This document shows, piece after piece, positions 623-1,729 of a DNA stretch of 20,934 nt. Origin of the DNA: an uncultured Geobacter sp. (GTDB lineage: Bacteria > Desulfobacterota > Desulfuromonadia > Geobacterales > Geobacteraceae). Numbering within the stretch: position 1 is the first letter of the stretch; each line of letters starts with the position of its first letter. The DNA lies in NCBI GenBank assembly GCA_964432775.1, contig CAYSPF010000006.1:19238-40171 (forward strand). Direction: 5' to 3'. Position numbers and translations under genes: made by a program. The notes below the pieces were generated by a model. It ran no database searches and had not been told where the DNA came from. It saw only the letters and a program-made list of their open reading frames with translations.

Positions 623-1729
623 ATGTTTATCATCAAGAAAGTAAAAATCCGTTCCCACGAGAAGGGACTTTTTTTTAAAGACAAAGAGTTCAAGGGTCTT
701 TTGGATACGGGCAGACACTGGCTGGCGGACCCGCTTTGCCAGGCGCGGGTGGACGTGGTTTCACAGCGCGACCCATGGCTTGTTCACCGTGACCTGGACC
801 TGATCGTGAAAACCGGTCTTCCTGAAGACGAGGCAACAGTGCTCGACCTGAAAGACCACGAGCGGGCACTGGTCTGGATCGACGGCCGCTTCGAACGGGT
901 TCTGGGACCGGGGATGTACGCCTTGTGGACGAAATTCAGGAAAGTGCGGACCGAAGCGATCGATACACGTTCCATCCGCTTCGAACATCCTGAAATGAAT
1001 GTCATCCTGTCGTCACCGGGGGTGGAAAGGCTCCTGGAGACTTTCGTAGTGGAGGAAGGTTTTGCCGGGATATTTTTCCGTGACGGCGAATATGTCCGGA
1101 CCTTCGGACCCGGACGCTACCTCTTCTGGAAAGATGCAGGGAGGATGCGGTTCCAGCTGGTGGATATGCGCGAAAACCTGCTCGATATCTCCGGCCAGGA
1201 AATCCTGACCGGCGACAAGGTGACCCTCCGCCTCAACGCGGTTGCCGCATACCGGGTAACTGACGCGCGCAAGGCGGTGTGCGAGGTTGAGAATTACCAG
1301 CAGGCCCTCTATCGCGAGGCCCAGTTGGCGCTGCGGGGCCTGATAGGCGGCCGCGGGCTCGATTCGCTCCTGGCCGACCGGGAAGCCGTATCACGGGAAC
1401 TGGAGGAAAACCTCAGGAAGCGCGCCGCCGGGTTCGGCATCCAGCTCGTCTCGGTGGGGATCAGGGACCTAATCCTGCCGGGAGAGATGAAGGACCTGCT
1501 CAACAAGGTGATCGAGGCGCAGAAGGCTGCGGAGGCGAACCTGATCGTGCGGCGCGAGGAAACGGCCGCAATGCGCAGCCAGGCCAATACGGCGCGGCTG
1601 CTGGAGAACAACCCGACCCTGATGCGCCTCCGCGAGTTGGAGGTGCTGGAGAGGGTTGCCGGCGGCTCGGAACTGAAAGTGGTGCTCGGAGAGAAGGGGC
1701 TGGCCGAAAGGCTCGTCAACCTGCTCTGA
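623..1729 (+). CDS. SPFH/band-7 (stomatin/HflKC-like) family protein with an atypical N-terminal region made of tandem SPFH beta-unit repeats; no obvious TM segment
   Basis: 368-aa ORF with a strong RBS (AAGGAGA, 7 nt upstream). The C-terminal ~180 aa show classic SPFH motifs: ILTGDKVTLRLNAVAAYRV, and a coiled-coil with AQKAAEANL...ARLLENNPTLMRLRELE. The N-terminal region contains three ~40-aa repeats of the SPFH first beta-hairpin motif: KGLFFKDKEFKGLLDTGRHW, ALVWIDGRFERVLGPGMYALW and AGIFFRDGEYVRTFGPGRYLFW. There are 34 nt to rtcA, so the two are co-operonic. Confidence 0.85.
   Translation: MFIIKKVKIRSHEKGLFFKDKEFKGLLDTGRHWLADPLCQARVDVVSQRDPWLVHRDLDLIVKTGLPEDEATVLDLKDHERALVWIDGRFERVLGPGMYALWTKFRKVRTEAIDTRSIRFEHPEMNVILSSPGVERLLETFVVEEGFAGIFFRDGEYVRTFGPGRYLFWKDAGRMRFQLVDMRENLLDISGQEILTGDKVTLRLNAVAAYRVTDARKAVCEVENYQQALYREAQLALRGLIGGRGLDSLLADREAVSRELEENLRKRAAGFGIQLVSVGIRDLILPGEMKDLLNKVIEAQKAAEANLIVRREETAAMRSQANTARLLENNPTLMRLRELEVLERVAGGSELKVVLGEKGLAERLVNLL

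Follow-up and report, generated by a model that had tools for sequence, protein, structure and literature searches.

The window analysed here, a stretch of 20,934 nucleotides (nt) from an uncultured Geobacter sp. (positions 19,238 to 40,171 of contig CAYSPF010000006.1, assembly GCA_964432775.1), carries at positions 32-4281 of its plus strand a sigma-54 type promoter motif, a structured non-coding RNA of about 500 nt and the genes for a soluble SPFH/Band-7 protein, the RNA 3'-terminal phosphate cyclase RtcA and the RNA ligase RtcB. With moderate confidence we read this segment as an RNA-repair operon of the 'Band-7 / b7a-tRNA / RtcB' kind, the most likely function of which would be that of a tRNA-damage-responsive ribonucleoprotein (RNP) scaffold. 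The system as such was already predicted in 2016; what is new is the ~500-nt RNA around the tRNA-like module and its near-obligate pairing with the SPFH protein. Our account draws on gene order, protein domains and repeats, RNA structure, the co-occurrence of RNA and protein, and the variable linkage of both to the regulator RtcR, to RtcA/RtcB and to tRNA arrays.

A large structured RNA precedes the SPFH gene

The region upstream of the SPFH gene contains the following RNA elements.

58-566 (+): large structured non-coding RNA of about 500 nt, ends inferred
63-157 (+): 5' hairpin domain; 63-71 and 149-157 form its outer stem, 78-91 and 118-135 its conserved inner helices; the conserved strands are GGCCAnCGGCGC and GUUCCGnAAUGGnUUCUGA
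158-231 (+): tRNA-like cloverleaf, the b7a-tRNA module; its D, anticodon and T arms follow the canonical order
232-244 (+): small hairpin GGGUGAACAACCC, from the close-relative alignment and the minimum free energy (MFE) fold
251-262 (+): small hairpin CCGCGAAAGCGG with a GAAA tetraloop, from the same alignment and fold
275-286 (+): 5' strand CCGGAGGGGGAC of a long-range closing helix, pairing with 550-565
394-424 (+): 5' strand of helices E1-E3, the long irregular stem in the 3' domain, with a conserved GGAU(A/C)CCG loop
490-535 (+): 3' strand of the E1-E3 stem, with a CUCAAG-type internal loop
550-565 (+): 3' strand GUCCCCCAAAGGCCGG of the closing helix

When the whole leader was aligned across 31 loci, RNAalifold returned a structure composed of the 5' hairpin, the cloverleaf, the long-range closing helix and the long irregular stem, the conserved internal loops of which have GGAUACCG facing CUCAAG; in the window, the CUCAAG-type loop is changed to CGCAAAG and carries an insertion. 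The structure comprises 55 pairs in 11 helices, and 93.5% of cells were paired, compared with 36-48% after the 3' partners had been slid by one to three columns. Changes on both sides were found for 42 pairs, and the covariation score was 0.54 versus about 0.10, a value that none of 500 shuffles reached. Every helix outside the tRNA-like module contributed to this covariation. One pair of the 5' hairpin, for example, is A-U in 17 and G-C in 14 of the sequences; the closing helix (helix 7 of the alignment), which also forms in the MFE fold, shows both-side changes in seven of its eight pairs; and helices 8, 9 and 11, corresponding to E1-E3, are 86-93% paired with both-side changes in 16 of 18 pairs. 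Conserved blocks lie on either side of the cloverleaf in whole-leader alignments, and nhmmer placed the 5' hairpin directly 5' of the tRNA-like element in 38 loci from several phyla. As an independent replicate, an alignment and a fold (MAFFT/RNAalifold) were made from 24 metagenome RNAs, all below 85% identity to every seed, with the window sequence left out. The helices reappeared at identical window positions, including 395-398 with 523-526 and 402-410 with 518-521. Folding of window positions 62-590 yielded an MFE z-score of -4.5, and the MFE structure includes the 5' hairpin, the tRNA arms and the closing helix.

The module at 158-231 was called 'tRNA-Leu(AAG)' by ARAGORN, with a length of 74 nt and no long variable arm, and scored 32.7 bits against the Rfam tRNA model (RF00005; threshold 29) with the two top acceptor pairs mismatched; a default scan of the whole window at Rfam gathering thresholds did not list it. 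Its acceptor stem has 5 bp, its anticodon loop, AGAAGAC, has G in place of U at position 33, and a 'Leu' anticodon sits on a body with a short variable arm, which is a mismatch of body type. Of the 31 homologous RNAs, 29 have an acceptor run no longer than 6 bp, and the anticodon loop measures 5-8 nt with no conserved anticodon. Given the short acceptor and the variable anticodon loop, we conclude that the module is a mimic and not a working tRNA. Searches of Rfam 15 returned tRNA only, both for window positions 1-700 at E-values up to 10 and for four whole loci at E-values up to 0.1. In some loci (L032:2366-2448, L037:5444-5525, L039 and L042), about 85 additional nt separate the 5' hairpin from the tRNA-like module, and because this insert holds the T-arm-like sequence GGGTTCAATTCC, it may represent a second partial tRNA-like module.

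Ahead of the SPFH gene, nhmmer detected both conserved blocks of the 3' domain in their expected order in about 39 of 73 loci, nine of which are outside the seed alignment, and failed to detect them where the protein was less than about 55% identical to the window SPFH protein. Directly after the closing helix, 27 of 67 homologous RNAs have a T-run (at least five of seven; L016, L021, L029, L076, L099, L169 and L184 are among these loci), so situated that the RNA may there be a separate transcript or an attenuation point. In the window no U-run follows the closing helix, and read-through into the SPFH gene is therefore expected. We also considered a small conserved open reading frame (ORF) in the spacer at 232-622 and rejected it: the lone ORF (234-590) is rich in Arg, Gly and Pro, alignment indels are not multiples of three and no conserved protein cluster maps there.

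The RNA and the SPFH protein are a constant pair with interchangeable neighbours

We compared 80 genome loci from Desulfobacterota, Planctomycetota, Acidobacteriota, Hydrogenedentota, Myxococcota and other phyla. A tRNA-like element was present upstream of the SPFH gene and on the same strand in 56 of the 71 loci with at least 800 nt of upstream sequence, usually 250-600 nt before the start codon. From the RNA side, metagenome contigs were scanned for a 21-nt motif of the 5' hairpin alone, which yielded 120 loci. The tRNA-like element came right after the motif in 96 of the 115 loci with enough sequence, and an SPFH gene started 340-640 nt downstream in 58 of the 72 metagenome loci with at least 1 kb downstream. 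Twelve of 14 motif loci that lacked the SPFH gene lacked the tRNA-like element as well and, since some tens of chance matches to the 21-nt motif were estimated, these are probably chance hits; the RNA without a detected SPFH gene was seen in L101 and L184 only. About 80% of informative loci contained both RNA and protein, whichever of the two was searched for first; leaving aside the probable chance hits, the figure from the RNA side was about 95%.

The genes around the pair are far more variable. Of 46 loci flanked on either side by at least 3 kb, 10 had RtcA adjacent, 12 had RtcB and 16 had RtcR, and 26 had none of the three and no tRNA array. The RNA and the SPFH protein thus constitute the constant pair, and RtcR, RtcA/RtcB and tRNA gene arrays are interchangeable neighbours. 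A previous sequence-only reading of the window, which had focused on the SPFH gene, had described it as the first gene of an rtcA-rtcB operon and had left open whether the adjacency was confined to this strain. The adjacency recurs in several phyla, but the rtcAB link is not the core of the system: only about one locus in four has RtcA/RtcB beside the SPFH gene, and the structured RNA stands ahead of it almost everywhere. The RNA and the sigma-54 motif (32-566) lay just outside the coordinates considered in that reading and were overlooked there.

In loci L013, L015 and L035 the order is rtcR (divergent), complete RNA, rtcB and SPFH gene, and rtcA was detected afterwards in L035 only. Here the RNA stays at the 5' end instead of next to the SPFH gene and, as it lies upstream of rtcB, is a unit of its own. 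In L027, L030, L051, L061 and L081 the RNA-SPFH pair is found in or beside arrays of 16-36 tRNA genes on the same strand, which cover up to all 20 amino acids (for example L081:911-7104 and L030:2482-8143); our literature search gave no relevant report linking tRNA arrays with SPFH proteins among the papers listed. Locus L081 is a 94-kb IMG/VR viral contig, and we considered whether the module is mainly phage-borne, which we rejected because there were only three viral-contig matches.

The SPFH protein carries a triplicated beta unit and no membrane anchor

The SPFH gene and the parts of its product are as follows.

610-617 (+): ribosome-binding site of the SPFH gene, AAGGAGAG, read from the sequence
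623-1729 (+): soluble SPFH/Band-7 protein, 368 amino acids (aa)
632-838 (+): beta unit 1, aa 4-72
839-1045 (+): beta unit 2, aa 73-141
1046-1474 (+): beta unit 3 and SPFH alpha/beta core, aa 142-284
1481-1666 (+): long helix, aa 287-348, from the AlphaFold2 model
aa 349-368 (+): conserved C-terminal tail

The Pfam family Band_7 (PF01145) covers aa 142-313 only (E = 2e-34; 119.6 bits, cut-off 23.6), and a profile search of the PDB matched stomatin over aa 142-354 (E = 1e-34) and left aa 1-141 without any match. In the AlphaFold2 model (pLDDT 82.3), three five-strand beta units follow one another (aa 4-47, 71-114 and 138-181), and the third alone continues into the SPFH alpha/beta core and then the long helix. 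These data agree with the sequence-only reading, which had described a C-terminal SPFH domain with a coiled coil and three N-terminal repeats, of which only the third runs into a full domain. We then compared sub-profiles of an alignment of 38 SPFH homologues with each other: unit 1 (aa 8-72) matched unit 2 (aa 73-141) with 97.8% probability (E = 8e-13, 53 columns), and units 1 and 2 each matched unit 3 (aa 142-210) with 96% (E = 3e-9). One homologue, P0097 (435 aa), has one extra copy of the beta unit, giving four in total, and another, P0022 (501 aa), has two extra copies, giving five, so the number of repeats varies naturally. On the strength of the profile comparisons, the model and these additional copies, we conclude that the triplication is real and modular. 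The proposed repeat length of about 40 residues has to be corrected, as the units recur every 66-68 aa and share a conserved core of 31-53 aa.

Foldseek gave the best E-values for stomatin (7e-17, about 239 columns), and chains of the major vault protein (MVP) aligned with the whole query over 420-439 columns (E about 1e-11); a separate AlphaFold2 model of aa 1-141 reached a pLDDT of 52 and was left out of the fold search. The SPFH core is accordingly stomatin-like, and in the predicted structure the layout of beta-repeat stack, SPFH shoulder and long helix resembles a short MVP. At the level of sequence profiles, Pfam at E-values up to 0.1 gave neither a Vault repeat nor an MVP shoulder match, and no MVP chain was matched in the PDB profile search at E-values up to 0.01.

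The highest 19-residue Kyte-Doolittle mean of the protein is 1.29 and is located in an SPFH beta-strand, from which we conclude that there is no transmembrane (TM) segment. Because the gene is flanked by the structured RNA on the 5' side and rtcA on the 3' side, it has no NfeD partner either, and the conserved neighbours in related loci include no NfeD-like cluster; both absences had been pointed out in the sequence-only reading. The HflK/HflC cut-offs of NCBIfam were not reached (TIGR01933, 58.6 versus 159.4; NF008181, 38.8 versus 660), and NCBIfam holds no model for the family of this protein. An assignment as a defence system was rejected, as PADLOC gave no match. More than 6000 homologues were found, nearly all of about 368 aa, and one of them, P0115 (62% identical), is named as PA4582 family. 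Carriers include Syntrophotalea carbinolica DSM 2380, whose homologue P0018 is 76% identical, and Blastopirellula marina DSM 3645 (L038).

A sigma-54 motif at the presumed start of the operon, and RtcR in related loci

32-47 (+): sigma-54 type -24/-12 promoter motif, TGGCACgacgaTTGAA, motif match

The pattern TGGCAC-N5-TTGMW has two matches in the window, where 0.03 would be expected, and the motif occurs at the same relative position in 12 related loci. Judging from the motif, we presume an RtcR-dependent transcription start near position 58. The window begins 31 nt before the motif; in the closest relatives, L001-L005, an RtcR gene (PF06956 plus Sigma54_activat) lies divergently upstream. 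The gene for sigma-54 itself, rpoN, is located within the window (14360-15811, -). The second match to the pattern, TGGCACagagaTTGAA at 17728-17743 (+), is also exact. It falls downstream of kdsD in a region where the genes are on the minus strand, and it is not followed by any convincing plus-strand gene.

In 24 loci RtcR was seen as a neighbour, and some of these lack RtcA/RtcB. In L006, L007, L014, L019, L037, L042, L043, L050 and L067, a divergent RtcR gene stands beside the RNA-SPFH pair with no RtcA or RtcB in a flank of up to 6 kb, the downstream part of which is only 0.2-1.3 kb in L007, L019, L050 and L067. The presence of RtcR beside the pair in such loci suggests that the RNA-SPFH pair may itself be an RtcR target. 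In Salmonella, RtcR is activated by tRNA fragments (PMC7790460).

The rtc genes follow the SPFH gene on the same strand

1752-1758 (+): ribosome-binding site of rtcA, GAGGAGG, read from the sequence
1764-2789 (+): rtcA, RNA 3'-terminal phosphate cyclase, Pfam RTC (6e-79) and RTC_insert
2887-4281 (+): rtcB, RNA ligase, 464 aa, Pfam RtcB (2e-87), domain from aa 97

The SPFH gene, rtcA and rtcB share one strand, and the Band-7 protein is encoded near RtcB, as in the b7a-tRNA system. Between the SPFH stop codon (1727-1729) and the ATG of rtcA (1764) there is a gap of 34 nt with neither a terminator-like nor a sigma-70-like site, in line with the co-transcription that the sequence-only reading had deduced from the short gap and the GAGGAGG site. 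No TROVE protein is encoded in the operon. All matches of the window RtcB to the RtcB-family models of NCBIfam stayed under the curated cut-offs. The Pfam RtcB domain is preceded by an N-terminal extension of about 95 aa (aa 1-96; 2887-3174, +), which is common to L001, L002, L017 and L063 and is not shared by most other linked RtcB genes, the tblastn matches of which begin near residue 82. Between rtcA and rtcB, a gap of 97 nt contains a terminator-like hairpin, GGATGGGGAAAAACTCCATCC then GGTTTTTGAA (2845-2865, +), and the count of terminator-like sites in the scanned region equals the chance expectation.

Relation to described systems

The sequence-only reading had taken an SPFH-RtcA-RtcB operon to be undescribed, which is not the case. 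Burroughs and Aravind, in the abstract of their 2016 study (NAR), reportedly presented SPFH/Band-7 and Ro/TROVE modules as cofactors that act as scaffolds together with cognate RNAs; they reportedly also saw the SPFH protein as a relative of the major vault protein. Passages of later sources credit them with the combination of a Band-7 protein and a predicted tRNA-like RNA next to RtcB (bioRxiv 10.1101/312249) and with the proposal that the SPFH protein is a scaffold with a cognate RNA, in parallel to Ro/TROVE proteins and Y RNA (bioRxiv 10.1101/312249, PMC13404743). In a 2026 preprint, such Band-7 proteins are named 'MVP homologs' that share operons with RtcB (PMC13404743). According to another 2026 report, the Pseudomonas aeruginosa protein PaFlo8 (PA14_60630; PA4582 family) is encoded inside an rtc locus with RtcR, RtcA and RtcB (PMC13086221); a term search of that report retrieved no passage that mentions the RNA or the domain triplication. 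The idea, put forward in the sequence-only reading, that the SPFH protein occupies the slot of Rsr (Ro60) as a scaffold therefore equals the published hypothesis; it was incomplete in that it lacked the RNA partner, the counterpart of Y RNA.

The window shares with the Band-7/b7a-tRNA/RtcB system the Band-7 gene by RtcB and the upstream gene for a tRNA-like RNA (here 158-231). It differs in that b7a-tRNA, as relayed by citing sources, is a tRNA-like molecule only, whereas the window has it as one module of a ~500-nt RNA, and in that adjacency to RtcB is the minority state among our loci. The rsr-yrlBA-rtcBA operon of Salmonella is similar in its control by RtcR and sigma-54 and in placing a ring-forming RNA-binding protein and a non-coding RNA with a tRNA mimic ahead of RtcB/RtcA. 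However, the protein in the window is an SPFH protein, whereas Rsr of Salmonella is a TROVE/vWA protein. The RNAs differ too: in YrlA the T arm comes before the D arm and a loop closes the acceptor stem, whereas the window RNA keeps the canonical arm order and its acceptor end opens into the flanking domains. Moreover, the window RNA is several times longer than the Salmonella Y RNAs and, for positions 1-700, Rfam gave no Y RNA match at E-values up to 10.

In its predicted structure, the SPFH protein may resemble the vault particle (MVP, vault RNA and TEP1) in its stack of five-strand beta repeats, SPFH-like shoulder and long cap helix, and the two would also share the association with a small structured RNA, which in the window is known from gene neighbourhood. 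Compared with the cages of stomatin, HflK-HflC, QmcA, prohibitin and flotillin, it has neither a membrane anchor or hairpin nor an NfeD or protease partner, it possesses two extra copies of the first beta-subdomain, and an RNA gene is its obligate neighbour. GOLLD and ROOL, which were found near tRNA islands or arrays and form cages (PMC12286853), are likewise large structured RNAs of bacteria and phages, of unknown function and often located by tRNA arrays, and tRNAs are sometimes embedded in GOLLD. The window RNA matches neither of them in Rfam, and its family is mostly chromosomal (three viral-contig matches); in addition, GOLLD and ROOL are thought to be RNA-only, whereas the window RNA has a dedicated protein partner.

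A model for the RNA-SPFH pair

By analogy with other SPFH proteins, the window protein would be expected to oligomerise, and it would bind the upstream RNA. The resulting particle could act on damaged tRNA as a counterpart of Rsr-Y RNA. In our model, transcription would start from the sigma-54 promoter, the activator presumably being RtcR, a regulator that damaged tRNA turns on in Salmonella. The first product would be the ~500-nt RNA, consisting of the 5' hairpin, a tRNA-shaped module unfit to serve as tRNA and the helix-closed 3' domain, to be followed by the soluble SPFH protein with its triplicated first beta-subdomain and then by RtcA and RtcB. Most likely, the SPFH core and the long helix would drive assembly into a ring or cup, as in stomatin, HflK/C and the vault protein, and the extra beta units would lengthen the wall of this ring or cup and replace the membrane anchor. 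Binding of the RNA would create an RNP that displays the tRNA mimic and that, like Rsr-Y RNA, could gather or shield damaged tRNAs together with their enzymes, be it RtcA/RtcB or tRNA-cutting nucleases.

More tentatively, and with clearly less confidence than we place in an RNA-repair operon, we propose that 'b7a-tRNA' is one module of an undescribed, ornate RNA of 450-580 nt that forms an obligate RNP with a miniature-vault-like SPFH protein, which would amount to a vault-like particle of bacteria that is coupled, through RtcR, to the signal of tRNA damage and in certain lineages also to whole back-up tRNA gene arrays.

Alternative explanations

Several points speak against an RNP scaffold for RNA repair. 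RtcA/RtcB are adjacent in only about a quarter of the loci with enough flank, and the function of the pair therefore need not be ligation. The RNA is always found at the 5' end of the transcription unit, which is equally expected of a cis-acting leader. The 3' RNA domain is weakly conserved in the window and its closest relatives, and in the window it is more divergent than in most loci. The 2018 source describes b7a-tRNA as not validated (bioRxiv 10.1101/312249), and deletion of paFlo8 in P. aeruginosa is reported to have had no phenotype in assays of growth, virulence, motility, biofilm formation and oxidative stress, all of which are unrelated to RNA damage.

The main rival is that the upstream RNA is a cis-acting leader, that is, an attenuator or a sensor of damaged or uncharged tRNA, of RtcB or of the SPFH protein, which sets the output of SPFH protein, RtcA and RtcB and is not a stable trans-acting RNP partner. 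This would account for the position of the RNA before the first gene of the unit even where rtcB comes first, and for the T-run right after the closing helix in 27 of 67 RNAs, which resembles a regulatable intrinsic terminator; furthermore, tRNA-shaped modules could contact tRNA-binding factors. On the other hand, an RNA of 450-580 nt with at least 11 covarying helices and conserved internal loops, maintained in at least six phyla, is far bigger than known attenuators, and the window lacks the U-run after the helix. The pairing of RNA and SPFH gene is kept alongside RtcR, alongside tRNA arrays or with neither, and the parallel operon of Salmonella has stable Y RNAs at the equivalent position. 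Weighing these observations, we regard a cis-acting leader as unlikely.

A decoy role is compatible with the data and overlaps our model. In this case the tRNA-like module would soak up anticodon nucleases or other tRNA-targeting toxins, the SPFH assembly would protect or concentrate the RNA, and repair by RtcB would be an optional add-on, in accordance with the absence of RtcA/RtcB from most loci. The anticodon loop is the most variable part of the module (5-8 nt, no conserved anticodon), which fits diversifying selection on a target mimic, complete tRNA arrays resemble back-up tRNA sets, and the same role has been proposed for YrlA's tRNA-like domain (PMC7790460). Yet neither a toxin nor a nuclease gene is among the conserved neighbours, PADLOC gave no match, and a decoy has no obvious need for a conserved 5' hairpin and 3' domain. 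We likewise regard a decoy as an unlikely explanation of the RNA.

It is very improbable that the element at 158-231 is an ordinary tRNA gene, its flanks processed spacers and the SPFH gene merely located downstream. ARAGORN and Rfam do call it a tRNA, the acceptor stem measures 7 bp in two of the 31 homologues and scores with the Rfam tRNA model go up to 66 bits in some, but the acceptor stem has 0-6 bp in the other 29, the window module lacks U33 and combines a 'Leu' anticodon with a short-variable-arm body, and anticodon loops of 5, 6 or 8 nt exist. In addition, the flanks covary as structured helices, and the anticodon changes from locus to locus on a conserved body. That the SPFH protein is of the conventional type that organises membrane microdomains or regulates proteases (HflK/C, QmcA, YqiK), in an rtc operon by coincidence, is suggested by its stomatin-like core and by database names such as 'regulator of protease activity HflC', but is hardly credible for a protein with neither TM segment nor NfeD partner, an HflK score of 58.6 where 159.4 is the NCBIfam cut-off, and a link to the RNA that holds across phyla.

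To the SPFH-RtcB link, which has been in the literature for nine years, the present analysis adds a defined object open to testing, namely a strongly covarying ~500-nt RNA with approximate boundaries, a partner protein that accompanies it in about 80-95% of informative loci and a predicted inducing signal (RtcR, tRNA damage). Should RNA and protein assemble into a particle, bacteria would have an equivalent of the Ro-Y RNA and vault RNPs alike, and the few known kinds of large structured RNA in bacteria would be joined by a further class. Such a particle would also offer a handle on how vault-like or SPFH cages use RNA, and on the reason why tRNA arrays accompany large structured RNAs.

Other genes in the window

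A convergent gene for a 212-aa protein (4348-4986, -) follows rtcB and has a weak nucleotidyltransferase match (PF01909, 8.5e-5). We rejected its identity as the RNA-ligase-associated nucleotidyltransferase RlaP, as there is no PF10127 match and the gene is missing from all 80 related loci; a connection with the module is therefore improbable. At 5329-7521 (+) the window encodes a sensor kinase that has a solute-binding domain, and the region 8885-20168 (-) represents the rpoN neighbourhood, with ptsI, rapZ, hprK, hpf, rpoN, kdsD and kdsA.

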